DNA of 60,656 nucleotides from a virus (Duplodnaviria > Caudoviricetes), in IMG/VR virus record IMGVR_UViG_3300021197_000990, positions 1 to 60,656 of that record. One strand, given 5' to 3'. Under the pieces are notes generated by a model. The model had not been told where the DNA came from and did not search any database. It saw only the letters and a list, made by a program, of their open reading frames with translations. How positions within the stretch are numbered: the stretch's first letter is position 1; each line of letters begins with the position of its first letter. Positions 4,007 through 60,656 of the stretch are shown here, one piece after another. Position numbers and translations under genes: made by a program.

Positions 4007-4283
4007 CTTTACACCAAGATTACGTGAGCTACAAGCAGAGCTAAATGCAGCAGTTAACGAAGTAGTAGATGACTTCACTCATAAGTTCATTGATCTATAC
4101 TACGATGACTTTGTGAAAGAGCATATGTGTGCAGAAGTAGGCATCAATAGTCTTCAACTAGAACGCTTACTCGAGCTAACAGACTGTGAAATACATGATC
4201 TAGTAGATTCAGATGAAGCACGTGAAGACGCATTTGATGAAGCTGTAGCTACTATTAGAGCAACTATTAGAGATATGTACTAA
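3999..4283 (+). CDS. Hypothetical protein
   Basis: ORF; start moved to the ATG after GGAG. Confidence 0.7.
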   Translation: MNNFTPRLRELQAELNAAVNEVVDDFTHKFIDLYYDDFVKEHMCAEVGINSLQLERLLELTDCEIHDLVDSDEAREDAFDEAVATIRATIRDMY

Positions 4284-4292
4284 GGAGTTATT

Positions 4293-4583
4293 ATGAGAAC
4301 GTTGAATATTAGTGAAGATACTGCTGACACTTTGTTTATAGACTTGCTGAACGAACACTTAGAGCTAATACTTAGCACTAATACTTCGTTCATTCATGGA
4401 GACGACTTTAACAGTAGCATGAGGATCAGTAAAGCTATTAGTATCTTAATGCAACAGCTAAAAACAGACGCTGAGCATAAGCAGTGGTTAATGCATACTC
4501 TACATCCTTTACAAGATGCTTACATTTCTCATGAGTACGAACTCAACGCGATACAAGACGCTTACACCTCTAGCGAATATTAA
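4293..4583 (+). CDS. Hypothetical protein
   Basis: ORF with AAGGAG RBS. Confidence 0.7.
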   Translation: MRTLNISEDTADTLFIDLLNEHLELILSTNTSFIHGDDFNSSMRISKAISILMQQLKTDAEHKQWLMHTLHPLQDAYISHEYELNAIQDAYTSSEY

Positions 4584-4648
4584 AAAAAACTAAAGGTGAC
4601 AGTCATGGAAACAGTAATCCAAATTCGAATAAATAAAGGAGCATTAAT

Positions 4649-4951
4649 ATGATCTCAGGTGGAACTAATAATAACTCAGTCGAACAAGACTTATCCATCA
4701 CGATTATGGAAGAGGCTATCGACTTAAAACGGCGTAAGTCTAAAGACTATCAAGGTTCACAGTTTAGTCAAGCCGACTACTTCCCTTATGGTCATACAAG
4801 CTACTTACATATGTTACATACTAAAATGTTACGTATCAGATCTGTAGCTGAACAAGAATCTACTAACTTCGAGTCACTTGAAGATAGTCTTATTGACATG
4901 ATTAACTACGCCGCTATGTATGCTGCAGCTGCTCGTAAAGGAGAGGTCTAA
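4649..4951 (+). CDS. Nucleotide-modification-associated domain 1 (DUF1599-like, all-alpha)
   Basis: KSKDY...KMLRIRS...ESLEDSLIDMINYA pattern. Confidence 0.7.
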   Translation: MISGGTNNNSVEQDLSITIMEEAIDLKRRKSKDYQGSQFSQADYFPYGHTSYLHMLHTKMLRIRSVAEQESTNFESLEDSLIDMINYAAMYAAAARKGEV

Positions 4952-5220
4952 TGCAAACCAACGGAACAACCGAAATAAAACTAGACGACGAGTTACTAAC
5001 TCTAGAGGTCGAGTACAGTGGCTGGTACGATCCGGGCGTATGCTCGGGTCCACCTGAGAACTGCTATCCACCAGAAGGTGAGATGGAATGGCATATCTCT
5101 AGAGCATGGGTGTGGATTGAAGAAGCATCTATGGATATTCAGTTAACTCAAGATCAAATCAAAGAAATACTACCTAGCATCTATGACACAATCGATGCTG
5201 ACGTATCATCATTACTTTAA
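4951..5220 (+). CDS. Conserved phage protein (GPPENCYPPE motif)
   Basis: Coupled ORF with a motif recurrent in phages. Confidence 0.75.
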   Translation: MQTNGTTEIKLDDELLTLEVEYSGWYDPGVCSGPPENCYPPEGEMEWHISRAWVWIEEASMDIQLTQDQIKEILPSIYDTIDADVSSLL

Positions 5221-5230
5221 GGAATATATT

Positions 5231-5719
5231 ATGTACAAGACTATCGCACGTGGTAACGACGCTCGAGTTAAAACTTATCGTGGAACTGTAACTTCTAAAA
5301 CAGATCCAGAGTTATTAGAACTTAAAGCTAACATCAAACGTCGTAATGATGAGATCAACGCATCTAACGAACGCATTATGTCTTACATCGAACAAGGTGT
5401 AACTAAACATATTGCAGTACCTGGTGGCTGGATTAAGGTTCCTTACTCTATCCTAGACTTACAAACCACACTTCGCGTACGTCTTATGGGTCGTGGTCCA
5501 CGTGAGTCTATCAAGAGTGAAGCGCGTTCTAAAGGCTATCATGGTGATCTAAGTTGTTATCTTCCTATGGAATTTGCAACTCACTTCGATGTCTACATTA
5601 ATCATAACTCTGACGACACATTAACTAAATATGCAAAACGTCTAGGTTACAACGACTACTATGACGCATGGATTAAAACACCAGCACGTCATGCATTCGA
5701 ACCACACTTTGCATTATAA
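5231..5719 (+). CDS. Hypothetical protein
   Basis: ORF; start chosen after AAGGA. Confidence 0.75.
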   Translation: MYKTIARGNDARVKTYRGTVTSKTDPELLELKANIKRRNDEINASNERIMSYIEQGVTKHIAVPGGWIKVPYSILDLQTTLRVRLMGRGPRESIKSEARSKGYHGDLSCYLPMEFATHFDVYINHNSDDTLTKYAKRLGYNDYYDAWIKTPARHAFEPHFAL

Positions 5720-5730
5720 CAGGAGTTCCT

Positions 5731-5955
5731 ATGACCATCCCTAATGCTACATTTCTATATGGTGATGCGTTAGCTCAAGTAGATACTGTAAAGCTCGATT
5801 CAGGTTATCTAGTGCGACCTAAGGGTCAACTAGGTAACTGCGGGTTCTTTCCTTATCCATGGACAGCTGCCCATCACAAGGTAAAAGAGGTTGCACAACG
5901 TGAGTTCATATGTGGGCATCACGGCAAAATAGCTAAACACTTACGAGGTGAATAA
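5731..5955 (+). CDS. Hypothetical protein
   Basis: ORF with AGGAG RBS. Confidence 0.7.
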   Translation: MTIPNATFLYGDALAQVDTVKLDSGYLVRPKGQLGNCGFFPYPWTAAHHKVKEVAQREFICGHHGKIAKHLRGE

Positions 5956-6599
5956 TGTATAACACTGGTAAAGTAAAAGAGATATTCCAAGGCTTATATG
6001 CTAATGATACTAAACCTGAAGACGATACTATCGAAGTCATTGGTTTACAATTCTTAGCTGATAGCCCATATATCTTCCGTCCACCTAACCAAGAGTACAT
6101 CGACGCAGAAATAGCCTGGTACGAATCAGAGTCTAGATCTGTAGATAAACTTGCAGAAATATATGGCAAACGTGTAGCTATCTGGGATAGTGTCTCTGAT
6201 AACGATAACATCATCAACAGTAACTACGGTTGGTGTGTTTATAGTAAAGAGAATGGTTACCAATTCGCCAATGTTCTACAAGAACTAACTAATAATCCAA
6301 ACAGCCGCAGAGCTGTAATGATCTACAACCGTCCTGAAATGTGGACTGATTACAATCATAACGGTCGTAGTGACTTTATGTGTACTCATTGTGTTCACTA
6401 CATGGTTCGCAACGGTAAACTTATATCGCTAGTAAACATGAGGTCAAACGATCTAGTATTCGGCTACAACAACGATTACGCATGGCAGCGTCATATTCAA
6501 GCTAAGCTAGCGATGGCTCTTGAGTTACCTGTTGGCGAAATCATATGGTCTGTAGGTAATGCACATGTATACTCAAGGCACTTCAGTCTCCTCTCATAG
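5955..6599 (+). CDS. dCMP hydroxymethylase (T4 gp42-like, thymidylate synthase superfamily)
   Basis: INSNYGW, SRRAVMIYNRP, SDFMCT (catalytic Cys), VNMRSNDLVFGYNNDYAWQ and HVYSRHF are collinear with T4 gp42; Asp at the dCMP-specificity position. Confidence 0.88.
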   Translation: MYNTGKVKEIFQGLYANDTKPEDDTIEVIGLQFLADSPYIFRPPNQEYIDAEIAWYESESRSVDKLAEIYGKRVAIWDSVSDNDNIINSNYGWCVYSKENGYQFANVLQELTNNPNSRRAVMIYNRPEMWTDYNHNGRSDFMCTHCVHYMVRNGKLISLVNMRSNDLVFGYNNDYAWQRHIQAKLAMALELPVGEIIWSVGNAHVYSRHFSLLS

Positions 6600-6609
6600 G
6601 GGACTCAGT

Positions 6610-6624
6610 GCCTTCGGGCTTTTT
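6610..6624 (+). terminator. Short UUCG hairpin plus T-run; possible terminator
   Basis: GCC-TTCG-GGC-TTTTT, preceded by another hairpin overlapping the stop codon. Confidence 0.45.
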
Positions 6625-6630
6625 AGGTCG

Positions 6631-6690
6631 GCCGGACTGGCGTCCTGAAATCTGAATATTTTTTAAAACCCGGGCAGGCGTCCATGAGAT
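6631..6690 (+). promoter_or_regulatory. Two copies of motif B
   Basis: GCCGGACTGGCGTCCTGAAAT and CCCGGGCAGGCGTCCATGAGAT. Confidence 0.55.
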
Positions 6691-6725
6691 CCCATGCGAA
6701 TCCTTACGCCCACTTATTGTCATCA

Positions 6726-6745
6726 TGGCCAGCTAAAGCTGTCCA
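6726..6745 (+). promoter_or_regulatory. Motif C copy
   Basis: TGGCCAGCTAAAGCTGTCCA. Confidence 0.6.
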
Positions 6746-6779
6746 AATTTATGATGATAACACATAGGAGTAACTAAAG

Positions 6780-7211
6780 ATGTCCAAGAAAGGTATGCAT
6801 CCAAATTCGCTAGCAGCCTTAAAGAAAGGTGCCGCTCCAGAGTTTAACTCTGAGACTGCCAAGATTGCAGCCGCAAAGTCAGCTGAAGTTAGACGTCGTA
6901 ATAAAGAAGCTCGTGATGCTCTCAAAGCTACTGCAAGTAACTTTAAGAAAGTAGCGAAAGAATTATCCGACGATGTACCATCAGCTATCGAGATCTTAAA
7001 CCTGCAAATGGTAAAGGCGTTAGCTAATGATGACACTGACATGGTCATTGAGCTAGCTAAAGTACTAGCAGAATACCAAGCACCTAAACTAGCACGTACT
7101 GAGAACACAAATGTAGAAGTATCTGCAGATGATCTATCAGACGAAGAGCTAGAAGCTAAACTTAAAGCATTCTTAAAAGATGATGATGACAAAGGTGATG
7201 ACGATGAGTAA
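6780..7211 (+). CDS. Putative terminase small subunit-like DNA-binding protein
   Basis: HPNSLAAL...F..E.AK.AAAKS..RR N-terminus, LAEYQAPKL and DDLSDEEL resemble TerS-like proteins. Confidence 0.5.
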   Translation: MSKKGMHPNSLAALKKGAAPEFNSETAKIAAAKSAEVRRRNKEARDALKATASNFKKVAKELSDDVPSAIEILNLQMVKALANDDTDMVIELAKVLAEYQAPKLARTENTNVEVSADDLSDEELEAKLKAFLKDDDDKGDDDE

Positions 7212-7629
7212 CATGGCAGACACTATAAAGACTATGAATGATAGGTTCGGAGTTAACGACTGGGTAATCGACAAATTACAGAGCGATGACTTTGAGTCTG
7301 TTGAGAAGTTACTAGAGTTCCGTATTAAGGACCTATTGGCAGAAGAGTTCTTAGAGACACAAGCTGCTTTTAAGGAGAAAAACGCGGAAGAACTCGTTGA
7401 TGGTTTAGTAGACCTCATAGTAATCGCAATGGGAACGTTAGACATTCTAGACGTTGACACTCATAAAGCATTTAACAAAGTAATGAAAGCTAACCTAAGC
7501 AAAGAAGCTGGTATAAAACCAGAGCGACCAAATCCGCTCGGACTGCCTGATTTGCTAAAACCAGAAGGCTGGGTAGGACCTGATCATAGGTTTAACCATG
7601 GCTTACTACCACTTATATGGGAGGAGTAA
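7204..7629 (+). CDS. MazG-like all-alpha NTP pyrophosphatase (candidate dCTPase/dUTPase)
   Basis: EEFLE...ELVDGLVDL...V.KANLSK...LLKPEGW..PD. Confidence 0.85.
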   Translation: MSNMADTIKTMNDRFGVNDWVIDKLQSDDFESVEKLLEFRIKDLLAEEFLETQAAFKEKNAEELVDGLVDLIVIAMGTLDILDVDTHKAFNKVMKANLSKEAGIKPERPNPLGLPDLLKPEGWVGPDHRFNHGLLPLIWEE

Positions 7630-7781
7630 TGCAAAACTTAGAACTCCAATTATTAATTCTATTCCTAGGTGCAATCATATGGACCGTGGTGCTGATATTA
7701 GTAGTATCACCTGATAAGACTATAGATAAAGTAAGAGAAGAGCTGGAGGCTCACGAGAGGAACCAAGATGACAAGCTATAA
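7629..7781 (+). CDS. Small membrane protein, 50 aa (not in ORF track)
   Basis: Coupled start, GAGGAG RBS, one hydrophobic helix. Confidence 0.6.
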   Translation: MQNLELQLLILFLGAIIWTVVLILVVSPDKTIDKVREELEAHERNQDDKL

Positions 7782-7980
7782 CATACTAATACTGATCGCG
7801 ATATTCGGACCATGCATATTATTAATGTGCTTGGCTGTAAGAGAAGAACAAAAGGATAAAGCCAATGAGCAACAGAAACGTGGACGTAACGTTAACGCAG
7901 GAACTGTACGATCAAGTAACAGAAAATGCAATGAAGTACAACAAAGTAAGTGCAGAAAATGTAACTCTTGCAATGGCTAA
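7768..7980 (+). CDS. Possible small membrane protein
   Basis: N-terminal hydrophobic helix; long overlap with the next gene lowers confidence. Confidence 0.4.
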   Translation: MTSYNILILIAIFGPCILLMCLAVREEQKDKANEQQKRGRNVNAGTVRSSNRKCNEVQQSKCRKCNSCNG

Positions 7981-8344
7981 ACGATGTGAGTGTGAACTGT
8001 ATGAATTACAACTAATGAAGGAAGGCCGTTGGCAAGAGTTCAATGGTTGGGCAGTTGACGGCATATCAGAGGAATATGGTCATGTAGACTGTAAGACTAT
8101 TGTAGGATCTAAACCATGGTGGAACATAAGTAAAACGTCTATGCGTAACATATGTAGACAACATGGAGTTATCGATCACTACTATTTCTTAAAGATGACT
8201 AACCCTAAGACCGCAAGGTTTGAGGTAGGTGAGACAGTTAAGTTCGAATGGACTGGTGTACTGTCTTATGCAGAAGTAATGAAGTATATCCAATGCAGCT
8301 CAGGTCATGGCTACTATGTAGACACGAGGAAAGCTCATGTGTGA
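7865..8344 (+). CDS. PD-(D/E)xK nuclease resembling T4 DenB (endonuclease IV)
   Basis: KRCECELYE, AVDG...VDCKT, WWNIS and C-terminal IQCSSGHGYYV parallel remembered DenB blocks. Confidence 0.5.
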   Translation: MSNRNVDVTLTQELYDQVTENAMKYNKVSAENVTLAMAKRCECELYELQLMKEGRWQEFNGWAVDGISEEYGHVDCKTIVGSKPWWNISKTSMRNICRQHGVIDHYYFLKMTNPKTARFEVGETVKFEWTGVLSYAEVMKYIQCSSGHGYYVDTRKAHV

Positions 8345-8428
8345 TAGATGTAAAGTTCCACCTGTGCAAACAATATAATCTAACTATAGCTAAAGGGTAA
8401 AGCCCTGCAGCAACTCAAGGAAACTATT

Positions 8429-10276
8429 ATGCAACTAGTATATGATATTGAAACTGATGGTCTATTCGCAGAAGTAACTAAGATCTGGTGTATTGTAGCA
8501 GTAGATATTGCTAACAATAACAAGGTTTACTCTTACTCAGATCATGACAACGACTTACCGAGCATTGCAGAAGGCTTAAAGCTATTGCAGTCCGCTGATG
8601 TATTGATCGGTCATAACATTATCGGCTATGATAATGTAGTAATCAAGAAGTTATTTAACATTGACTTATCATTTAACACTGTAAAGAACTTAGATACATT
8701 AATTATGTCTCGTGTATTCAACTATGCACGTCCCGGTGGTCACTCATTGAAGAACTGGGGTAAGTTAGTAGGTGATGACAAGATATCATATGATGATTGG
8801 ACTCAGTACTCTAAGGAAATGCTAGAATACTGTATACAGGATGTTATGGTAAACGTAAAGATCTACCACGCAGTTATGAAAGAGTTCAAAGCTACCCACA
8901 AAGTAAACCCATTAATCAGTAATGGTCTACGCATCGAACATGAGATTGCTCATATCAATACTGAGATTCGTTCTGATGGCTGGAACTTTGATATGGATAA
9001 AGCGCTAGCTACTAGACAACGCATGGATGATGAGATGTCTCGCATTCGTGGTATCCTTGAGCCAATGTTAGGTAAACGTAAAGTACTAATTGATAAAGAA
9101 CCTAAGACTCCTAAGTTTAAGAAGGATGGTACTTATCAAGCAACTACTGTTCGTATGCTTACAGACTATTTCGGTCACGAGGTTAAACCTGAGGACACTC
9201 ATTTGATGGCAGCAGGTACACCATTCCAACGTACTAAGATGGAACAGATAGAACTAGGTCAAACACCATTAGTAAAAGAGTGGTTGTTAACTCAAGGCTG
9301 GAAGCCAGATGAGTACACTCGTAAGAAGATTAATGGTAAGTGGGTTAACCAAGGTCCTAAGTTTACATCTACTTCATTGAAAGCATTCGGTGAGCTAGGT
9401 GAAATGATTGACTCTTACTATACTATAAGAAACCGTATCGCTGTACTTGAAGGCTGGATCGAGAACGTTGAGAAAGCAGGTGATGGTCGTCTTCACGGTG
9501 ACATGTTCACTATTGGTACTCCATCTTTCCGTTGTAGACACAGTGGTATCGTAAATATTCCTTCAGTTAATGCTGCATGGGGTAAAGAGATGCGTGAGCT
9601 ATTCAAAGCAGATGACGGTCATGTACTAGTAGGTGCTGACTCTGCAGGTAACCAGCTACGTGGCTTATGCCACTACGTAAATAACGAAGAGTATACTGAC
9701 ATTGTAATCAATGGTGATCAACATCAACGTAATGCGGATGCGCTAGGTTGTAGTCGTCCACAAGCTAAGTCATTCTTGTATTGTTATTTATTCGGTGGTG
9801 GTGATGCTAAGTTAGGTCAATGTATTACTGATAAGCTAGATGCAGGTCGTGGTCGTAAAGCTCGTGATGACTTCGCTAAGTCTATTACAGGATTAGCAGA
9901 GATACGTGAGAAAGTAGAATCAGAGTGGCGTTATAAGGAACACAGGCAAGGTGTTGGTTGGGTTCATGGTTTAGATGGTCGTCCATTATTCGTACCAGCT
10001 GAACATCAGTGTCTTAACTACTTACTACAGTGCGCTGAAGGTATCACTTGTAAGGCTGCAACTGTATACGCCTATAAGAAGATTAAAGAGCAAGGCCTTC
10101 GTGCTAGTATCAGAATCTTCTATCATGATGAGGTGCAGATCTCCTGTCACCCTGATGATGCAGATAAAGTAAAAGAAATAGCTATCGCTGGTTTCCGTGA
10201 AGCACCTAAAGAATTTGGTGTTGACTGTATGGATGGTGATGGTATCGTAGGTAACAACTATGCCGAGACTCACTAA
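8429..10276 (+). CDS. DNA polymerase, family A (T7 gp5-like), with 3'-5' exonuclease
   Basis: ExoI DIETDG, ExoII GHNIIGYD, motif A GADSAGNQLR, motif B RPQAKSFLY, motif C YHDE. Confidence 0.96.
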   Translation: MQLVYDIETDGLFAEVTKIWCIVAVDIANNNKVYSYSDHDNDLPSIAEGLKLLQSADVLIGHNIIGYDNVVIKKLFNIDLSFNTVKNLDTLIMSRVFNYARPGGHSLKNWGKLVGDDKISYDDWTQYSKEMLEYCIQDVMVNVKIYHAVMKEFKATHKVNPLISNGLRIEHEIAHINTEIRSDGWNFDMDKALATRQRMDDEMSRIRGILEPMLGKRKVLIDKEPKTPKFKKDGTYQATTVRMLTDYFGHEVKPEDTHLMAAGTPFQRTKMEQIELGQTPLVKEWLLTQGWKPDEYTRKKINGKWVNQGPKFTSTSLKAFGELGEMIDSYYTIRNRIAVLEGWIENVEKAGDGRLHGDMFTIGTPSFRCRHSGIVNIPSVNAAWGKEMRELFKADDGHVLVGADSAGNQLRGLCHYVNNEEYTDIVINGDQHQRNADALGCSRPQAKSFLYCYLFGGGDAKLGQCITDKLDAGRGRKARDDFAKSITGLAEIREKVESEWRYKEHRQGVGWVHGLDGRPLFVPAEHQCLNYLLQCAEGITCKAATVYAYKKIKEQGLRASIRIFYHDEVQISCHPDDADKVKEIAIAGFREAPKEFGVDCMDGDGIVGNNYAETH

Positions 10277-12486: not shown

Positions 12487-13077
12487 ATGAATTTCACTCC
12501 AATTGTAATCGAGAAAACTGATAAGTCTGAACGTAGCTATGACATCTACTCTCGTCTATTAAAAGACCGTACAGTATTCTTGAACGGTGGTGTAGATGAT
12601 AACGTAGCAGCAACAGTAGTAGCACAGTTGTTATTCTTAGAAGCAGAGAATGCTGATGAGGATATTACATTATTCATTAACTCACCTGGTGGTGTAGTGT
12701 CTGCTGGCTTAGCAATGTATGACACAATTCAATTCATTAAACCAGATGTAAGAACTATTGTAACAGGTCAAGCTTGTTCAATGGGTTCATTCCTAGCTAA
12801 CGCTGGCGCACCTGGAAAACGTTACATGTTACCTAATGCAAGACATATGGTACATCAAGTATCTGCTGGTACCTCAGGACAATGTTCTGATATGCGTATA
12901 GCAGTTGAAGAAGCTACAAGAATTAACAACACTCTTGCTACGATATATGCAGAGCATAATAGCAAGGGTAAATCAGTAGAAGATCTACTTAAAACTATGG
13001 ACCGTGATACCTGGATGACCGCAGAAGAGTCACTAGAGTACGGATTGATAGACGAGATCATTACTAAAAGAGCATAA
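12487..13077 (+). CDS. clpP: ATP-dependent Clp protease proteolytic subunit
   Basis: [28 protein letters not shown] (Ser), MVHQ (His), DRDTWM (Asp). Confidence 0.96.
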
Positions 13078-13123
13078 CAATCGGAGTGGAGTAATCCTGC
13101 TCCACTAACTATTGGATAATACT

Positions 13124-14791
13124 ATGAAAAAGCAATATGAAACTTCACCATTCGTTAAGACTCACGTTCCATGCTTAGATCAGACTGATTGCTGTTCATC
13201 TGACGGCAGATCTATTAGGCAAGATGGTAGCAGCTTTTGCTACGTCTGTTCAACAAACTTTAAATCAAATCAAGAGGACACTTCATTGGAGACTATCAAT
13301 GTTAAACCAACCACCAATACTTTTCGTGCTGAGTCAGTCGACACTATTCGTAATTATAGTAGTTATCCTATTAGTACTCGTGGCATTAGCCAAGAAGTAG
13401 TAGATCATTTCAACGTCAAGATGTCTGTAGATACTGAAGGCAGACCTGAAGCACACTACTATCCGTTTACTATTAACGGTCAGATTGCTGCATACAAAGT
13501 ACGTAAGTTACCTAAAGAGTTCTCTACTGTAGGTCAGTTCAAAGATGCAGAACTATTTGGCCAAGCACAATGTGCCGGTGGTCGTACTCTAGTAATCACA
13601 GAGGGTGAGTTAGATGCTATGGCTGTAGCTCAAGCTTACTTAGAGAAATATAGTAAGTTCTACCCTGTTGTATCGTTACCTAACGGGGTACAGTCTGTTA
13701 AGTCTTTACTAACTAACCGAGATTTCGTACGTAAGTTCGATACTGTAGTTCTAATGTTTGACATGGATGAAGCAGGTCAAGAGGCTGTAAGCAATGCTGC
13801 TAAGATCATAGGCATTGGTCGTGTTAAAGTCGCTAAGCTGAAGACTAAAGATCCATGTGATGAGCTTAACGAACATGGCTATGAGTCTATACTTAGAGCT
13901 ATATGGGATGCAACCACATGGTCACCAGCAGGTGTACTTATGGGTACAACTATATGGGATAAGTATATCGAACGTTGTAATGTAGAATCTGTTCCATACC
14001 CAGAGTGTCTATCAGGTCTTAACGATAAGATCGAAGGTATTCGTCAGGGTGAGATTACATTGTTCACGTCAGGTACAGGTAGTGGTAAGTCAACAGTAAT
14101 CAAAGAGATTATATTCGAGCTACTAGAAAAGACTGATGAGAAGATAGGCTTGATATCACTAGAAGAATCTATTGGTGATACAGCTGAGAAGTTTATACAA
14201 ATGCAAATGCGTCGTCCGTTACATGGACATCCACCAGCTACTGAAGAAGATCAACGTGAAGCTTTCGATAAGGTATTCGGTGATGAACGTCTAGTTCTAT
14301 TAGATCACCAAGGTTCTGTATCAGATGATTCACTTATGGATAAGATCGAGTACATGGCATTGATGGGTTGTAAGTACTTAGTACTAGATCACATCACAAT
14401 TGCTGTGTCAGAAGGTAACGATGGATTAACTGGTAACGAAGCTGTCGATAAGCTGATGTCAGATTTACTGAAATTAGTTAAGCAACATAACGTATGGTTA
14501 GGATTAATCTCTCACTTACGTAAAGCGATGGGTGGTAAGTCATTCGAGGAAGGTGCATTGCCGTCTATCGATGACATCAAGGGTTCTGGTTCTATTAAGC
14601 AGATCTCATTCGACATCATTGCATTTGCTCGTAACCTAGTTGCAGAAGAAGAATATGAACGTAATACAATTAAACTACGAGTGCTTAAGTCACGATTCAC
14701 TGGTAAGACTGGTGAAGCAGGTGCAGCTGTCTATGACACTGAGACTACAAGACTAGGCAAAGGTTGTACAGGATTTGACTTGGAGATGTAA
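13124..14791 (+). CDS. Primase-helicase (T7 gp4-like)
   Basis: Cys zinc-binding N-terminus, TOPRIM ITEGELDA and FDMDEAG, Walker A SGTGSGKS, LDHI, SHLRK, KSRFTG; alternative TTG start at 13112. Confidence 0.96.
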   Translation: MKKQYETSPFVKTHVPCLDQTDCCSSDGRSIRQDGSSFCYVCSTNFKSNQEDTSLETINVKPTTNTFRAESVDTIRNYSSYPISTRGISQEVVDHFNVKMSVDTEGRPEAHYYPFTINGQIAAYKVRKLPKEFSTVGQFKDAELFGQAQCAGGRTLVITEGELDAMAVAQAYLEKYSKFYPVVSLPNGVQSVKSLLTNRDFVRKFDTVVLMFDMDEAGQEAVSNAAKIIGIGRVKVAKLKTKDPCDELNEHGYESILRAIWDATTWSPAGVLMGTTIWDKYIERCNVESVPYPECLSGLNDKIEGIRQGEITLFTSGTGSGKSTVIKEIIFELLEKTDEKIGLISLEESIGDTAEKFIQMQMRRPLHGHPPATEEDQREAFDKVFGDERLVLLDHQGSVSDDSLMDKIEYMALMGCKYLVLDHITIAVSEGNDGLTGNEAVDKLMSDLLKLVKQHNVWLGLISHLRKAMGGKSFEEGALPSIDDIKGSGSIKQISFDIIAFARNLVAEEEYERNTIKLRVLKSRFTGKTGEAGAAVYDTETTRLGKGCTGFDLEM

Positions 14792-14796
14792 TACAA

Positions 14797-16902
14797 ATGA
14801 AATGGCATGAAAACGTAGAGCTCTATCTTAGGGCTCAACTTACCAATGGTAAACGTTTCAGACATGAAGGACTAAACATACTAAAAGACAATGCAGCTGT
14901 CTGCTACCCTAATTTAGATGGGTACATTCAGTCTGCTCATCATAGTATATCTACGATATGTAAGCTAGAACCATGTGGCACTAAAGCTACTGGTGGGTTA
15001 ACTAATATCAGCTCTACAATAGGCAAAGATATTATGGCAACCATTGGCTCTACACATCAACAGGTAGACTGGAAGAAGTACCTACAACTAGGTGATCTAA
15101 TGATCGAAGCTTTCTTACAGTCAGGGTTACTGAGAATTATTACACCTGAAGCTAGATCTAGAGAACCTATTCTAGTAGAGATAAATGAAGGCTGGCCAAC
15201 AGATTTACCTGAGGCCTTAATCAAGCGAACACTAAGAGGTACGTTTGCTAACAAGCCTAAAGATATCACAGGTCCAACTCAGCTAATCAACTATGATCCA
15301 CTAGGACTAACATTCCATAAGAAGATTATTAAGAGATGGGATGAAAACTTAGATGGCCTTGTCGCTAATATGTTAGATACTCCGTGGATGAAAGCAGTTA
15401 ACAAACTTCAACAAACGCCATGGTCTATTAACAGTGATGTTCTTGAAGCAGTTGTGAGTCAACCTGAAAAGTTCTTCAGCATAGACTCTAAGACTAAAGA
15501 GAACTTCTCTAAGAAGATAGACTATGAATACACTGTCAGCAAAGCAAACATACTAGATGGCACAGTCTTTTATACTGCTGCAGACTTAGACTATAGAGGT
15601 CGTATATACTTCGTTGAGTCATACCTTAACTTCCAAGGTTCAGACTTAGCACGTGGACTTCTAACCTTCGGAGAGAGCAAGATCGTAACGCCTAATGGCT
15701 TACGCTGGCTCAAGATACATTGTGCTTCCTCATTCAACCAGAGTTATTCTATCGATGATATTCCTAGCTGGTGTTCAAGAGATTATGCATCTCACCTACG
15801 AGCAGAAGGCTTAGATAACATATCAGTAGATAAGATGACACTGAACGATCGTGAAGCTTGGTGTGATAACAATATGGAGTTAATAAATGAAACGGTCAGA
15901 AATGGAACGGTGCAAGACTGCGAGAAGCCTGTATGCTTCCTTGCTGCTGCTATTGAGCTTGTCAATTATCATGCTGCCAGTGGTGATTATTATAGTAGCT
16001 TGCCTATACCTGTGGACGGTAGCAACAATGGTTGGCAACACCTTGGTGCAATTTCTAAAGACATTGAGACGGGTAAACTAGTAGGTCTAGTACCAGTAGA
16101 TATTCAGAATGATTTCTACGTACAGACTGCTAAACGATTAATCGAGATTACAAAGGACGAAGAACGTAAGAGTATTCTAGATAGTATGCCTATGAAAGCT
16201 ATACGTAAAGGTATTAGTAAGCGTGGGAGTATGACTAGAGCTTACTCTGCAGGTGCTCAGAAGATAGCAGAGAATATGTTTCAAGACTGTAAGTCTGCTG
16301 GCTATACATTGAAGTATGGTATTACTGAAGAGCATTGTAAAGGATTTGCTAGAGACTTAGTTAAGGCTATCAGTGATGTATGCCCAGGTCCTTTAAGTAC
16401 TATGAAGTTCTTACAAGAGCTAGCAGCTGATAAGCTAAACGAAGGTTACAACTACTTAACATGGACTACACCATCAGGTTTTAAAGTTGTCTATGAGAAC
16501 TACCACATGGATCAGGTAAAGTATGCTAACCGTATTAAAGGTGTAGGCAATGTCCAAGACAAAGTCAAGCACGTACTTAAGATGTCATCACCTTGTCCTG
16601 ATAGACGAGGCTTTATGTGTGGCATTAGTCCTAACTTTGTGCACAGTCAGGATGCTGCTCACATGCAATCAGTAATCGATAGATTTGATGGACTGTTCGG
16701 TGCAGTTCACGATTCATTCAGTACTCATGCTTCGCAAGTAGATGAGCTACTAACTATAACCAAAGACGTATTCATTGAGATGTATGATCATGATAACTAC
16801 TTCGATGACATATGCTACAGACTTAAAGCTGAAGCTATGCAACCACATCGTGGTAACTTATCGATCAAAGATGTTAAAGCATCAGACTACTTCTTTGCAT
16901 AA
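14797..16902 (+). CDS. Single-subunit (T7-superfamily) RNA polymerase, compact, 701 aa
   Basis: DYRGRIY, motif A VDGSNNGWQH, motif B RKGISKRGSMTRAYS, PNFVHSQDA, motif C VHDSF. Confidence 0.95.
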   Translation: MKWHENVELYLRAQLTNGKRFRHEGLNILKDNAAVCYPNLDGYIQSAHHSISTICKLEPCGTKATGGLTNISSTIGKDIMATIGSTHQQVDWKKYLQLGDLMIEAFLQSGLLRIITPEARSREPILVEINEGWPTDLPEALIKRTLRGTFANKPKDITGPTQLINYDPLGLTFHKKIIKRWDENLDGLVANMLDTPWMKAVNKLQQTPWSINSDVLEAVVSQPEKFFSIDSKTKENFSKKIDYEYTVSKANILDGTVFYTAADLDYRGRIYFVESYLNFQGSDLARGLLTFGESKIVTPNGLRWLKIHCASSFNQSYSIDDIPSWCSRDYASHLRAEGLDNISVDKMTLNDREAWCDNNMELINETVRNGTVQDCEKPVCFLAAAIELVNYHAASGDYYSSLPIPVDGSNNGWQHLGAISKDIETGKLVGLVPVDIQNDFYVQTAKRLIEITKDEERKSILDSMPMKAIRKGISKRGSMTRAYSAGAQKIAENMFQDCKSAGYTLKYGITEEHCKGFARDLVKAISDVCPGPLSTMKFLQELAADKLNEGYNYLTWTTPSGFKVVYENYHMDQVKYANRIKGVGNVQDKVKHVLKMSSPCPDRRGFMCGISPNFVHSQDAAHMQSVIDRFDGLFGAVHDSFSTHASQVDELLTITKDVFIEMYDHDNYFDDICYRLKAEAMQPHRGNLSIKDVKASDYFFA

Positions 16903-42709: not shown

Positions 42710-43159
42710 TTATAGTTTACTTCGAGAAACGCCTTTAGTTTTCTCAATCGTACGAAGTCCACCTAGTCCAAGCATACCTAATAGAACAGGTAGCATTGTT
42801 GCTAAGTCAACTTGTGGGAATATTATTGCTGAACCATCAGCTGTTGTTACACCTAATGTTGCAACTACGAAAGTGAACAATGGTGCTATTAAGAAGTTTA
42901 ATGCGAAACCTAATCCGCATACCCAACCTATAAACGGGCGCCAACCTGCCACGAAAGTATCGTCGCTTTTAGCTTCTTCTTTATTTAAATCAACTTGAGC
43001 AAGAGATAGCTCATGAGCATTTCTTTCAGCTAACGTTTCAATCTCAAACTTAAGTTGATCTTTAGTTAATTTCTTATCTTGGTAATCGCCTACTAAGTCA
43101 ATGATCTTATCAACCGCTCCACCAGAAAGCAAGTTACCTATAAATGATAGTACACTCAT
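42710..43159 (-). CDS. Holin (3TM, GTA-holin family)
   Basis: AGWRPFIGWVCG...LLGMLGLGGLRTIEK. Confidence 0.85.
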   Translation of the reverse strand: MSVLSFIGNLLSGGAVDKIIDLVGDYQDKKLTKDQLKFEIETLAERNAHELSLAQVDLNKEEAKSDDTFVAGWRPFIGWVCGLGFALNFLIAPLFTFVVATLGVTTADGSAIIFPQVDLATMLPVLLGMLGLGGLRTIEKTKGVSRSKL

Positions 43160-58810: not shown

Positions 58811-58876
58811 TAACGCTGTGTAGCTAATAGCTAGCGAGCAGTAACATTATATAAATCAACAACTTAGGTGATTATC

Positions 58877-59596
58877 ATGGAAATTTTATTAATGCTTTTA
58901 ATTGCTATCATTATGGTAGCATCTGTAGGTGCTGTGTCACGCAGCTTAAATAGTGACCTTGTTAAAGGTTACGTCAACATGGCTATCTTTATCGGTGGTC
59001 TAGTTCTAGCAACTTCAATGCTGCTTGCATTCGAAGCTACAGCTCAAGAACTGCAAGACGATGAAGCTGTCGAGTATGTCATGCTATCTGGCGACGTAGA
59101 TAAAGCTATGCTGCTTAAACTAAAGAATGCAATAGCTAAGTATCCAAACCTTAAAACTATTGCTCTAGACTCACCAGGCGGTTACGTTCATATAGGTTTT
59201 GAGATCGGTCACATTATTCGTGAAAACAATCTTAACACTTATATCTATGGTAACGGCTCATGTGCGTCTGCTTGTACTTATATCTTTATGGGTGGCAAGT
59301 ATAGAGGTATGCAATTCGGTGGTAAATTAGGTTTCCATCCTGCTCGTGCTGGTGGTTTTCCTGGTTCTATACCACTAAATGACATCTTGCTTGACGGTCA
59401 ACGTCTAAGTCTTGATGCTGCAGAGTACTTCTTAACTATGGTTAATGCAGACCACAGACTTAAGATTATTCAGTTCTTATCAAAGAGCTATCAGAATACT
59501 CATTATAGTCAAATGGATTGGTATGTACCACGTAAGGATAACTTGTCTCATACGAGCTTGTTCCATGCAGGTGTTGTTACACACTTCTTCCTATAG
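58877..59596 (+). CDS. Membrane-anchored ClpP/crotonase-fold protein (COG3904-like)
   Basis: Two N-terminal hydrophobic helices; LDSPGG, CASAC..IFMGG, LGFH. Confidence 0.8.
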   Translation: MEILLMLLIAIIMVASVGAVSRSLNSDLVKGYVNMAIFIGGLVLATSMLLAFEATAQELQDDEAVEYVMLSGDVDKAMLLKLKNAIAKYPNLKTIALDSPGGYVHIGFEIGHIIRENNLNTYIYGNGSCASACTYIFMGGKYRGMQFGGKLGFHPARAGGFPGSIPLNDILLDGQRLSLDAAEYFLTMVNADHRLKIIQFLSKSYQNTHYSQMDWYVPRKDNLSHTSLFHAGVVTHFFL

Positions 59597-59681: not shown

Positions 59682-60212
59682 ATGACTATGATCACTGAAC
59701 CACGCACTGTATTCGTTAAAGATGTAACTTTAAACTATGCAAAACTAGTTAAACCAGTTAATCCTTTCGGTACAGAACAATATGAGTTGCAAATTGCGAC
59801 TACAGATTCTGCTACAGCTCAAACTATGCGTGACTTAGGTCTTAACGTTAAAGAGAAAGATGGCTCATTTACAGCTTCTCTTAAGCGTAAAGCACGCAAA
59901 GCCAATGGTGATGACAATGGTCGTCCTGTTGTAATAGATGCAGGTCTTAAGCCAATCGATGATAACCAGCTTATGAAATTAGGTAATGGTTCTGTCGGTA
60001 ACGTTAAGTTATACCAATATCCTTACGATGCTGCTGGTCGTAAAGGTACTGCAACTTCATTAACAGCTGTGCAAGTTGTTGATTTTGTTGAGTATGTTGG
60101 TGGTGGCGTTGAGGCTGGCTTCTCGGTTGTAGGTGATAGCTTACCTGCAGCATCTGAGCAAGACACTGTAGACGAGCAAGCTGAACCAGATATGGCAAGC
60201 ATGCCTTTCTAA
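59682..60212 (+). CDS. ssb: Single-stranded DNA-binding protein (T7 gp2.5-like)
   Basis: YAKL..P, GNGS.GNV, LTAVQVVDFVEY, acidic tail ending in PF. Confidence 0.85.
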   Translation: MTMITEPRTVFVKDVTLNYAKLVKPVNPFGTEQYELQIATTDSATAQTMRDLGLNVKEKDGSFTASLKRKARKANGDDNGRPVVIDAGLKPIDDNQLMKLGNGSVGNVKLYQYPYDAAGRKGTATSLTAVQVVDFVEYVGGGVEAGFSVVGDSLPAASEQDTVDEQAEPDMASMPF

Positions 60213-60656
60213 TATAGAATAAACCAGATGGTCCTTACGGATCGTCTGGTATTTTTTTTGGGATGATGTTTCATGGATATACTTACAGATTTAAGAGTAA
60301 TTCTCTTTATAATATTTGCAGTAATCGTATCTGCAGCTTTTTATCCTATAGAAACATGTGCAGTATTGGCAGTCTTTATACTTCAGCAACAGTTCTCCTT
60401 TTGGAGATCGTTTCTTCGGTCCACTCGTGGATCTTAGATTAATTTTTGCTGCGCGCCGAGATCGATCTTACAGATCGACACGTCACGACCAGATGTTCCC
60501 TCTGGAACTCCCTTAGGAGCAGAGGAGCGTTAGGAGCACAGGAGCGTTAGGAGCACAGGAGCGTTAGGAGCCAGGGAGCGGGAGCAGGAGCCTGGGGTGT
60601 GCCGGACAGGCGTCCATGAAATAATGTCCAGCTGAAGCTGTCCAACCATATAGGAT
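60091..60656. repeat. Terminal redundancy, copy 2
   Basis: Matches 1-559. Confidence 0.97.

Follow-up and report, generated by a model that had tools for sequence, protein, structure and literature searches.

A T4-type dCMP hydroxymethylase in an uncultured marine phage of 60 kb, predicted to put 5-hydroxymethylcytosine in place of DNA cytosine

We found that the window, the whole 60,656-nucleotide stretch of DNA analysed here, comes from an uncultured marine phage of 60 kb with a T4-type enzyme that should swap DNA cytosine for 5-hydroxymethylcytosine (5hmC). Judged from sequence comparisons, the region around this gene is, as a whole, probably best explained as a pre-replicative cytosine-replacement cassette placed before the phage's own DNA polymerase. 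The central inference of the earlier sequence-only reading still holds, on firmer ground than before: a pre-replicative pathway to a C5-modified cytosine, with a T4-type dCMP hydroxymethylase at its core. The features of the region are as follows.

4649-4951, plus strand: Nmad1/DUF1599 protein, 100 aa (PF07659)
4951-5220, plus strand: 89-aa ORF (phrog_14000, 4.9e-06; phrog_6858, 2.1e-05; both of unknown function)
5231-5719, plus strand: 162-aa member of an uncharacterised family (31 representatives)
5731-5955, plus strand: 74-aa ORF that abuts the hydroxymethylase start
5955-6599, plus strand: T4-type dCMP hydroxymethylase, 214 aa (1b49_A match; 47% identity to T4 gp42)
6670-6752, plus strand: repeated element in the intergenic space after the hydroxymethylase, ahead of the following ORF
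6780-7211, plus strand: 143-aa acidic protein (no family above threshold in Pfam or PHROGs)
7204-7629 (ORF opens at 7180), plus strand: MazG-type (DR2231-like) nucleoside triphosphate pyrophosphatase (PF01503, phrog_671)
7617-7781, plus strand: uncertain gene, a 54-aa ORF containing a hydrophobic segment (basis: ORF list and translation alone)
7865-8344, plus strand: PD-(D/E)xK nuclease-like protein, 159 aa (motif and predicted fold)
8429-10276, plus strand: family-A DNA polymerase, the downstream anchor of the cassette

The window is the entire record (completeness rating 100%), a podovirus-like genome with PolA, a T7-like RNA polymerase, an SU10-type capsid and a terminal repeat of about 560 bp. 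The intergenic element at 6670-6752 is similar to positions 505-554 at the inner edge of this repeat; the motif AGCTRAAGCTRTSCAA occurs exactly at 533, 6731, 16827 and 60630, and 7 matches were observed at two or fewer mismatches where 0.5 were expected. The modification genes do lie upstream of the DNA polymerase, as had been proposed: the family-A enzyme matches the DNA polymerases of Pelagibacter phage Kolga (39.6%) and Roseobacter phage CRP-7 (37.3%) by tblastn, and those of four related IMG/VR loci (L028, L030, L031 and L032) at 55%. Further downstream are a primase-helicase with fused Toprim and DnaB domains (13112-14791) and a T7-like RNA polymerase (14797-16902), the sole phage RNA polymerase recognised by Pfam or PHROGs; the second one that had been claimed was not found.

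The case for the cassette starts from the protein encoded at 5955-6599, which belongs to the thymidylate-synthase family (PF00303, 9.9e-20; phrog_160, 1.2e-45). Its closest solved relative is T4 dCMP hydroxymethylase (PDB 1b49_A, E = 5.4e-59, residues 24-213 aligning to 32-225), and the second-best solved match, a true thymidylate synthase, is 47 orders of magnitude behind (3.5e-12). At the functional positions given in the available text of the T4 ternary-complex paper (PMC6400193), 20 of 22 are identical, including E52, S89, Y91, R118, R119, D140, C143, D166, D174, Y206 and R208; the exceptions are the absent T4 Lys28 and an Ala in place of Arg59. Asp174, in the motif NDYAW, falls in the same alignment column as Asp179 of T4 and Asn177 of E. 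coli, which confirms the earlier identification of a gp42 relative with the Asp that selects dCMP. In the alignment the protein has Asp at E. coli positions L143, D169 and N177. According to the accessible part of a 2026 study (PMC13326640), Asp at N177 indicates dCMP as the substrate, Asp at L143 indicates a non-methyl product, and Asp retained at D169 excludes the signature of 5-hydroxy-dCMP synthases, for which Asn there is diagnostic; in agreement with this, our alignment places Asn at D169 in RB69 gp48, a proven 5-hydroxy-dCMP synthase. The predicted enzyme thus has what distinguishes hydroxymethylases, at the residue level, from thymidylate synthases, dCMP methylases and 5-hydroxy-dCMP synthases. 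Furthermore, searches of the genome for ThyX, dCMP deaminase and DHFR were negative, so the gene does not make up half of a thymidylate pathway.

The MazG-like pyrophosphatase and the DUF1599/Nmad1-like gene reported near the hydroxymethylase were both recovered. MazG, which probably starts at 7204 and not at 7180 where the ORF opens, matches PF01503 (PRA-PH; 3.7e-08, 34.1 bits with the cut-off at 21.3) and phrog_671 (9.7e-21), and its E55, E56, E59, D74 and D78, at metal-binding positions, are invariant in 16 homologues. The nearest solved relative is DR2231 (5.8e-06; 2.8e-07 with a profile), and since DR2231 is dUTP-specific, dCTP specificity of the window enzyme is a guess. The same subtype is present in Rhizobium phage RL38J1 (36.8% identity, 3e-16), whose DNA contains glycosylated cytosine derivatives according to the accessible part of PMC13326640. 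The Nmad1 protein scores 28 bits against a cut-off of 25 for DUF1599 (PF07659, 2.9e-06), with phrog_18404 (2.2e-17) and phrog_1485 (4.3e-13) in support, and K30, D33, Y34, Q35, K59, R62, N73, D79, D83 and Y87 are invariant in 18 homologues; Nmad1 adjoins cytosine-directed thymidylate-synthase homologues in other phages too.

Linkage was assessed in 134 related IMG/VR loci, 83 of them with a hydroxymethylase and 19 with ThyX only. MazG was found in 65 of the 83 and Nmad1 in 57, against 1 of 19 ThyX-only loci in each case, counts that are not independent (the 83 TS-like sequences include just 59 different ones, and at least two contigs, L041/L079 and L028/L118, are present twice). MazG and Nmad1 thus travel with the hydroxymethylase, whereas the 162-aa family adjoins either the hydroxymethylase or ThyX. 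Asp occupies D169 and likewise N177 in every one of the 83 TS-like ORFs.

Under the proposed pathway, MazG, perhaps together with Nmad1, would hydrolyse dCTP to dCMP, which would both remove the canonical precursor and feed the hydroxymethylase. This enzyme would convert dCMP, with methylene-tetrahydrofolate and water, to 5-hydroxymethyl-dCMP. Phosphorylation of this product to the triphosphate would fall to a kinase of the host or to a phage protein that was not recognised, and the phage polymerase would incorporate the triphosphate. The nuclease at 7865-8344 may degrade unmodified host DNA.

Plain 5hmC is most likely the base of the virion DNA, because no glycosyltransferase, methyltransferase or carbamoyltransferase was found, though relatives carry a TAGT glycosyltransferase or a methyltransferase. 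Six-frame searches for two DNA-glycosyltransferase families, TAGT and T4 beta-glucosyltransferase, gave no match, and Pfam scans of the ORFs gave no glycosyltransferase above threshold, the sole glycosyltransferase row being a sub-threshold match to Glyco_transf_10 on 4293-4583 (E = 0.059; 13.5 bits, with the cut-off at 23.9); methyltransferases and carbamoyltransferases as finishing enzymes were likewise not found in the genome.

It is nevertheless conceivable, if rather unlikely, that 5hmC is made and then decorated after replication by an enzyme that cannot be recognised from its sequence; finishing enzymes could be among the small neighbours at 4951-5220, 5231-5719, 5731-5955 and 6780-7211, or elsewhere. 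Decoration is common in the lineage, as 24 of the 83 hydroxymethylase loci carry TAGT or a methyltransferase, with in-cassette examples of TAGT in L106 (PF20691, 1.3e-13) and of a SAM methyltransferase (Methyltransf_23) in L085 and L030; the other 59, however, have neither in the span fetched. In these relatives the finishing enzymes occupy the same place in the cassette, and the window genome is without them.

The 162-aa protein speaks for decoration through its predicted fold. It probably starts at Met17 (5231) of a 178-aa ORF that opens at 5183, and matches to its 31 representatives (E <= 1e-3) begin at query residue 13 or later, mostly at 17-28. The family shares the motifs RVRLMGRGPR and ATHFDVYV and the invariant residues R12, Y16, N39, R88, G89, R91, D120 and Y122. 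The model is confident (AF2 pLDDT 89.4) and without known counterpart (Foldseek best E 0.23; VIA best Z 4.3), and PHROGs matched 0 of 28 members. However, in 56 of 77 loci the family is a neighbour of either the hydroxymethylase/Nmad1 or ThyX, and its position next to ThyX in 21 loci is at odds with a transferase specific to 5hmC. Decoration is also disfavoured by the small ORFs, which are without homologues in related cassettes: none was found for the 89-aa ORF in the 134 loci, nor for the 74-aa ORF, which has no Pfam or PHROG match either. The 143-aa acidic protein was detected in 15 loci by HMM, and its homologues in L028, L030, L031, L032 and L041 (39-42% identity) are on the strand opposite to the hydroxymethylase. 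The 54-aa ORF has no family match in Pfam or PHROGs.

Searches of the genome with T4 gp1, the RB69 thymidylate-kinase-like protein and PF02223 gave no dNMP kinase, which leaves one step of the pathway as written unfilled. Apart from an AAA ATPase, Walker A motifs were present in just two ORFs, both from the structural region. The earlier statement that neither a dNMP kinase nor a glycosyltransferase could be recognised therefore holds. In T4, gp1 turns dTMP, dGMP and HMdCMP into diphosphates (record annotation) and is indispensable. For want of a kinase, 5-hydroxymethyl-dCMP might be made with little or none entering DNA, resulting in partial replacement or a reshaped nucleotide pool; the accessible part of PMC13326640 describes trace incorporation only when a TS homologue is expressed in E. 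coli without its cognate kinase. We consider this improbable. Many phage lineages have kept the cassette, with MazG adjoining the polymerase, which would be difficult to account for if the DNA gained nothing from it. Moreover, a small P-loop kinase candidate (Walker A motif, ORFs below 300 aa) is present in only 3 of the 134 loci; cassettes without a kinase thus appear to be the norm, a hint that the step is covered otherwise.

That 5955-6599 performs a different chemistry, as a dCMP methylase (5mC), a 5-hydroxy-dCMP synthase (5hoC) or an ordinary thymidylate synthase, is highly improbable. The enzyme is of the thymidylate synthase superfamily, and its closest cultured-phage matches include Acinetobacter phage records (52.6% identity, at record level); DLP3, a phage of Acinetobacter, has been proven to carry 5hoC, and the synthases RB69 gp48 and DLP3 gp80 share with the window enzyme the superfamily, Asp177 and an acidic residue at 143 (PMC13326640, accessible part). 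Against this, Asp in place of Asn at N177 speaks against dUMP as substrate, Asp in place of Leu at L143 against a methyl product, and Asp at D169, where both synthases have Asn, against the 5hoC type, and the genome is without DHFR.

The protein at 7865-8344 is nuclease-like: E44, E47, D65, D75 and K77 are invariant in 8 homologues, and the model (AF2 pLDDT 86.4) matches NhoI (VIA Z 8.0), I-Ssp6803I (6.4), DpnI (6.3), PvuII (5.8) and Hjc (5.8). Its resemblance to T4 DenB (endonuclease IV) was not substantiated, and homology is hardly credible: the gene does keep its place in the cassette of the nearest relatives, with MazG on one side and the polymerase on the other (HMM matches in 9 loci), but BLASTP against DenB gave E 2.9, the suggested profile comparison (hhalign, 8-sequence alignment) a probability of 0.5%, and tblastn no match in 50,697 phage records, T4 and relatives included, while the top folds NhoI, Eco15I and DpnI are modification-dependent enzymes and point nowhere in particular. 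A function analogous to that of DenB, the cutting of unmodified DNA, is possible.

The T4 hydroxymethylcytosine pathway consists of gp42 (dCMP hydroxymethylase), gp56 (dCTPase/dUTPase), gp1 (dNMP kinase), the alpha- and beta-glucosyltransferases and DenA/DenB. Compared with known systems, the preferred reading, a cassette for 5hmC, shares with T4 a homologous gp42 with the same active-site and water-network residues, and the logic of a pyrophosphatase candidate beside the hydroxymethylase in genes adjoining the DNA polymerase. The label of a T4-style toolkit was, however, overstated, since only gp42 is homologous: T4 has gp1, gp56, glucosyltransferases and DenB, none with a homologue in the window, and the window pyrophosphatase is of the MazG/DR2231 type, whereas gp56 is of the dUTPase_2 type (no pairwise similarity, E 13). 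The T4-like Serratia phage Muldoon likewise has Nmad1 (gp040), with a T4-type hydroxymethylase immediately downstream of it (gp039; Asp at positions 143, 169 and 177), but also gp1 and gp56 homologues and annotated glucosyltransferases that the window is without. In Pseudomonas phage PaMx74 and related Xanthomonas and Stenotrophomonas siphophages, MazG and Nmad1, separate genes in the window, are fused (gp53, phrog_18404 'hydrolase'); the gp53 frame runs 4 nt into that of a TS homologue, which has Asp at 177 and Asn at 143 and is followed by dCMP deaminase and DHFR. The product of this TS homologue probably differs from that of the window enzyme. The cultured Pelagibacter phage Kolga has Nmad1 (gp36), TS (gp35), MazG (gp34) and PolA (gp31) in the window's order, with a ThyA-like TS (Leu143, His147) in which only Asn177 is changed to Asp. 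Roseobacter phage CRP-7 has a replisome and genome plan in common with the window (PolA 37%, primase-helicase 49%, RNA polymerase 34%) and similar size and G+C content; its first 21 kb, up to the structural genes, contain no homologue of the hydroxymethylase, Nmad1, window-type MazG, 162-aa family or nuclease.

The available text of the MetaGPA study (PMC8670742) reports that thymidylate synthase with Asp177 and PF01503, the domain pair of the window, co-occur specifically on cytosine-modified metavirome contigs, a link made by experiment between the pair and modified cytosines in phage DNA from the environment. The finishing enzyme validated there, a 5hmC carbamoyltransferase, is absent from the window; the main text names neither Nmad1 nor the 162-aa family ('Nucleotide modification associated' occurs 0 times).

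The order of the 162-aa family, Nmad1, hydroxymethylase, MazG and PolA recurs in IMG/VR marine contigs, and the cassette, which does without T4's kinase and sugar-adding enzymes, is common to many ocean phages.

The gene at 5955-6599 encodes a 214-aa protein of the thymidylate synthase (TS) family (PF00303, 71.2 bits against a cut-off of 24.3), and we found that the closest solved structure is that of the T4 dCMP hydroxymethylase (1b49_A, E 5.4e-59), the best true TS following at 3.5e-12. The protein matches 1,477 records of the cultured-phage collection, every one at less than 60% identity, and gp42 of T4-like Aeromonas and Salmonella phages is among the best of these matches (47-51%). Functional positions were read from an alignment with T4 gp42, RB69 gp48, E. 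coli ThyA and five metagenomic relatives. An excerpt of the ternary-complex study of the T4 enzyme (PMC6400193) names 22 such positions, and the window protein is identical at 20 of them, including T4 Glu60, Ser94, Tyr96, Arg123/124, Ser144, Asp145, Cys148, Asp171, Asp179, Tyr218 and Arg220; of the other two, Arg59 is replaced by Ala and Lys28 lies opposite a gap. The catalytic Cys (T4 C148) corresponds to window C143, the general-base Glu (T4 E60) to E52, and the water-network and pterin residues (T4 S94, Y96, S144, Y218, R220) to the identical S89, Y91, S139, Y206 and R208. The protein is without the C-terminal tail of TS and ends near T4 residue 226. The likeness to T4 gp42 that the sequence-only reading had noticed, together with the Asp that selects dCMP (window D174), is thus borne out.

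Not all gp42-like enzymes are hydroxymethylases: the excerpted text of PMC13326640 (2026) shows that some, such as RB69 gp48 and DLP3 gp80, are 5-hydroxy-dCMP synthases that depend on flavin and O2. According to the same text, replacement of Leu143 by Asp or Glu (E. coli numbering) admits water and marks a non-methyl product, and replacement of Asp169 by Asn marks the 5-hydroxy type; the change of Asn177 to Asp marks dCMP as the substrate, both there and in an excerpt of PMC8670742. In the window protein positions 143, 169 and 177 are Asp, Asp and Asp, the same as in T4: D140 stands at E. coli L143 and T4 D145, D166 at E. coli D169 and T4 D171, and D174, the cytosine-specificity residue, at E. 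coli N177 and T4 D179. In our alignment, position 169 of RB69 gp48 is occupied by Asn, in agreement with the excerpt of PMC13326640. Furthermore, no ThyX, dCMP deaminase or DHFR was found in the window genome. Given the three Asp markers and a genome without these three enzymes, we read 5955-6599 as a genuine 5-hydroxymethyl-dCMP synthase, that is, a predicted hydroxymethylase.

The MazG-like and DUF1599/Nmad1-like genes proposed alongside it were also recovered, both above their Pfam cut-offs. MazG at 7204-7629, in an ORF that opens at 7180, scores 34.1 bits against 21.3 for PF01503 and also matches phrog_671; its solved relatives are DR2231 entries only (2.8e-07 with the profile), and the acidic residues at the metal-binding positions Glu55, Glu56, Glu59, Asp74 and Asp78 are invariant across 16 homologues. 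From its linkage to the hydroxymethylase, we infer that this MazG would take dCTP, which is the role of gp56 in T4. Nmad1 at 4649-4951 scores 28 bits against 25 for PF07659 (DUF1599); the Nmad domains were reportedly defined by Iyer et al. in 2013. Alignment of Nmad1 with MazG gave an hhalign probability of 2.3%, and proteins fusing the two exist (phrog_18404, PaMx74 gp53). Profile search of the PDB found no relative of Nmad1, its lone row being a chance one at E 0.13, and prediction of a complex between Nmad1 and the hydroxymethylase dimer scored 0.02 against a mark of 0.32, a value that is evidence for neither side.

We examined the cassette in two sets of IMG/VR loci, 55 retrieved from the hydroxymethylase (all at 40-55% identity) and 80 from an 11-row alignment of the 162-aa protein encoded at 5231-5719. 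Iterated HMM searches covered 134 distinct loci and 4,381 ORFs. Near-duplicates are frequent among these loci and no fewer than two contigs are included twice, so that the locus counts do not represent independent cases. The recurrent order is 162-aa family, Nmad1, hydroxymethylase, MazG and PolA, commonly with an overlap of 4-8 nt between Nmad1 and the start of the hydroxymethylase (L068, L069, L070 and L085). Asp is present at both 169 and 177 in 83/83 TS-like ORFs (59 distinct sequences), and at 143 in 82 of them. MazG accompanies the hydroxymethylase in 65 of the 83 loci and Nmad1 in 57, compared to 1/19 each for loci that have ThyX only.

The edges of the cassette are variable among these 83 loci, with a TET-associated glycosyltransferase (TAGT; PF20691, 1.3e-13) in 11, a SAM methyltransferase in 13 and neither in 59. 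TAGT genes lie between core genes at L106:7007-8008 and L024:2370-3371, and methyltransferase genes at L085:8680-9519 and L030:7820-8659, the last of these loci being among the nearest relatives of the window. Judged from their gene content, the relatives suggest that other marine phages carry glycosylated or otherwise decorated 5-hydroxymethylcytosine (5hmC). The nearest relatives retain an acidic 143-aa protein (6780-7211) and encode it on the strand opposite to the hydroxymethylase, a sign that this one gene was inverted inside the cassette. For the small ORFs at 4293-4583, 4951-5220, 5731-5955, 7617-7781 and 7768-7980, the related loci contain no homologues.

Among cultured phages, the genome plan closest to the window is that of Roseobacter phage CRP-7, described in an excerpt of PMC6918029 as a podovirus of 58.1 kb with 40.3% G+C (identities: PolA 37%, primase-helicase 49%, RNA polymerase 34%). 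The cassette is absent from the first 21 kb of CRP-7, the part with its replication genes, and accordingly behaves as an accessory module. Records of cultured phages that match Nmad1 number 51, and in the three that we examined (3/3) Nmad1 abuts a TS homologue with Asp177. In the cultured SAR11 phage Kolga (MT375529; 7044-8698 in locus L142), gp36 is Nmad1, gp35 the TS and gp34 a MazG of the same type, followed by PolA as gp31. The Kolga TS is ThyA-like, with Leu143 and His147 kept and Asn177 changed to Asp, and a modified cytosine may be present in Kolga DNA; the main text of the paper describing this phage mentions neither these genes nor such a base. In Serratia phage Muldoon, Nmad1 (gp040) is directly upstream of a T4-type hydroxymethylase, which is followed by annotated glucosyltransferases. 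In Pseudomonas phage PaMx74, the MazG and Nmad1 fusion (gp53) overlaps thyA, whose product has Asn143, and a dCMP deaminase and DHFR follow. As the TS subtypes differ between Kolga (Leu143/His147) and PaMx74 (Asn143), Nmad1 and MazG seem tied to the cytosine substrate rather than to one product. Since Muldoon encodes homologues of T4 gp1 and gp56 as well, Nmad1 is unlikely to be a mere stand-in for either. Finally, the MazG subtype of the window is shared by Rhizobium phage RL38J1, whose DNA carries glycosylated cytosine derivatives (PMC13326640, excerpted text).

The record of 60,656 bp is the entire IMG/VR virus record, with a completeness rating of 100%. Bases 1-559 recur at 60091-60656 (551/557 aligned positions identical, with three small indels) and thus form a terminal direct repeat of about 560 bp, which supports a complete genome with about 60.1 kb of unique sequence. 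Some of the indels adjoin a 17-nt tandem array at 426-476. The source entry gives the record as linear and without end repeats, unlike the repeat seen in the window ends. The main features are the following:

Up to 16,902, + strand: early and replication genes
919-1950, + strand: AAA+ ATPase (PF00004, 1e-27)
8429-10276, + strand: PolA, a family-A DNA polymerase
Early and replication block, + strand: 5′-3′ exonuclease and RusA
12487-13077, early and replication block, + strand: ClpP, a full protease (1.4e-72)
Early and replication block, + strand: fused Toprim and DnaB primase-helicase
14797-16902, + strand: T7-like RNA polymerase
Minus strand: structural genes (SU10-type capsid, adaptor and portal)

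A further ClpP/NfeD-like protein is weakly matched at 58868-59596, and with the AAA+ ATPase and ClpP it could make up a phage-borne Clp-type protease system. Among the structural genes, 42710-43159 encodes a three-TM holin of the gene-transfer-agent type (PF11351, 4.7e-15), a family typical of alphaproteobacteria, which may be a hint at the host. The 16-nt motif AGCTRAAGCTRTSCAA occurs on the + strand at 533, 6731, 16827 and 60630, with 7 matches at up to 2 mismatches compared to 0.5 expected, and a longer element from the inner edge of the terminal repeat (505-554) is copied at 6670-6752, between the hydroxymethylase and the next gene. The motif or the repeated element might function as a promoter of the phage or as a regulatory site of another kind. 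Scanning 4200-8500 for sigma-70 promoters and terminators gave chance-level matches only. All sequencing runs containing the window are marine or seawater metagenomes, present as contigs, a form in which base modification does not show, with shares of at most 0.35, and no RNA run is listed.

The ORF at 7865-8344 shows a PD-(D/E)xK pattern, in which E44/E47, D65, D75 and K77 do not vary among 8 homologues (29-95% identity) and are laid out as a Glu on a helix, an Asp on a strand and then (D/E)xK. Its AF2 model (pLDDT 86.4) best matches restriction, homing and Holliday-junction nucleases in VIA (NhoI Z 8.0, I-Ssp6803I 6.4, DpnI 6.3, Eco15I 5.9, PvuII 5.8, Hjc 5.8), Z scores of up to 8 being in the range that the tool calls common; Foldseek matches to the PDB are weaker (best E 1.4e-02). 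We take all six of the named enzymes to be PD-(D/E)xK members. With its invariant residues and the best matches of its model, 7865-8344 is a probable nuclease. A search of the phage collection with tblastn gave no match for this protein. The more specific proposal of a resemblance to T4 DenB did not hold in a profile comparison (hhalign probability 0.5%) or in pairwise BLASTP (E 2.9). No DenB name appears among the best 50 BFVD fold matches, many of which are unnamed, and T4 DenB itself matches no Pfam family. The T4-style modified-cytosine toolkit put forward by the sequence-only reading consequently survives in part, both as observation and as interpretation: hydroxymethylase, MazG and Nmad1 stand, and DenB falls away. 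A second phage RNA polymerase was not found, the T7-like enzyme being the only one recognised in the window by Pfam or PHROGs.

The same reading had recognised no dNMP kinase or glycosyltransferase, and our searches agree. For the kinase, T4 gp1, the thymidylate-kinase-like RB69 p045 and PF02223 were all without a match at E<=1 in the window. Walker A motifs were found there in the AAA ATPase and two structural-region ORFs only, and no small P-loop protein was found. The queries work, as those with gp1 (6e-43) and gp56 both find the Muldoon homologues; gp56, which is of the dUTPase_2 type, was rejected as a counterpart of the window MazG (no pairwise similarity, E 13). For glycosyltransferases, neither TAGT (PF20691) nor T4 beta-glucosyltransferase (PF09198) gave a six-frame match in the window, and Pfam scans of the window ORFs returned no glycosyltransferase or other transferase above threshold, a scan that unrecognisable enzymes would escape.

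We then considered the 162-aa family. Exhaustive HMMER search yielded 31 representatives, with match positions that indicate a start at Met17 and with R12, Y16, N39, R88, G89, R91, D120 and Y122 invariant. The model is confident (pLDDT 89.4), and no solved fold was matched by Foldseek against the PDB (best E 0.23) or by VIA (wide best Z 4.3, helices only). Pfam gave just a sub-threshold DUF2961 row, PHROGs matched 0/28 members, tblastn against phages found no match and the ESM Atlas no usable one. Among 77 loci with a member of the family, 37 lack ThyX but contain the hydroxymethylase, Nmad1 or both, and 21 have ThyX (PF02511, 5.6e-43), which in 3 cases is joined by Nmad1 or the hydroxymethylase. 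Overall, 56/77 loci carry one or more of these three genes and 21/77 carry none, many of the latter being cut by contig ends. Members lie 0.1-2 kb downstream of ThyX, at L099:4635-5321 and in 20 further loci, on contigs that lack the hydroxymethylase, Nmad1 and a MazG of this type.

Standing beside two unrelated pyrimidine C5 one-carbon enzymes, the 162-aa protein may act on substrates or products that these share. Alternatively, the family may be a mere syntenic passenger of related replication modules. Under a bolder hypothesis, which we consider a long shot, an uncharacterised core protein fills the missing step of the kinase-less cassette and Nmad1 is an accessory subunit. The 162-aa family is the best candidate for this core protein given its Arg-rich invariant motifs, a modelled fold that is confident and unlike solved ones, and its hydroxymethylase or ThyX neighbourhood. 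Under this hypothesis, the 162-aa protein could act on 5-substituted pyrimidine deoxynucleotides, either as a kinase of a new, non-P-loop kind or as their carrier, and could, by analogy with T4 gp1, serve both dTMP and 5hm-dCMP; Nmad1 would be an accessory of cytosine-directed TS homologues and not an enzyme itself.

Protein identities, conserved residues and gene linkage are established here, and from them we propose a pathway. MazG, perhaps with Nmad1, would convert dCTP to dCMP, from which the hydroxymethylase would form 5hm-dCMP with methylene-THF. A further kinase and the host NDP kinase would raise 5hm-dCMP to the triphosphate, which PolA would incorporate into DNA. Because no finishing enzyme was recognised, the virion DNA would stay undecorated. 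In the excerpted text of the MetaGPA study (PMC8670742), it is specifically on metavirome contigs with modified cytosine that Asp177-bearing TS and PF01503 are found together, which supports such a pathway in kind. This type of system is already known; what stands out biochemically in the new member is the missing kinase, along with two conserved uncharacterised proteins.

If the DNA is 5hmC-substituted, T4-style cytosine replacement extends to common marine podovirus-like phages of the CRP-7 type. Numerous ocean virus contigs contain related cassettes, and the cultured SAR11 phage Kolga has one as well. Such a modification would bear on escape from restriction and CRISPR, as well as on the efficiency with which certain sequencing and enzymatic library protocols recover these phages. 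The minimal cassette raises the question of how 5hm-dCMP is phosphorylated without a gp1-type kinase, and the TAGT and methyltransferase genes that vary among its relatives suggest that a family of decorated 5hmC bases occurs in the ocean.
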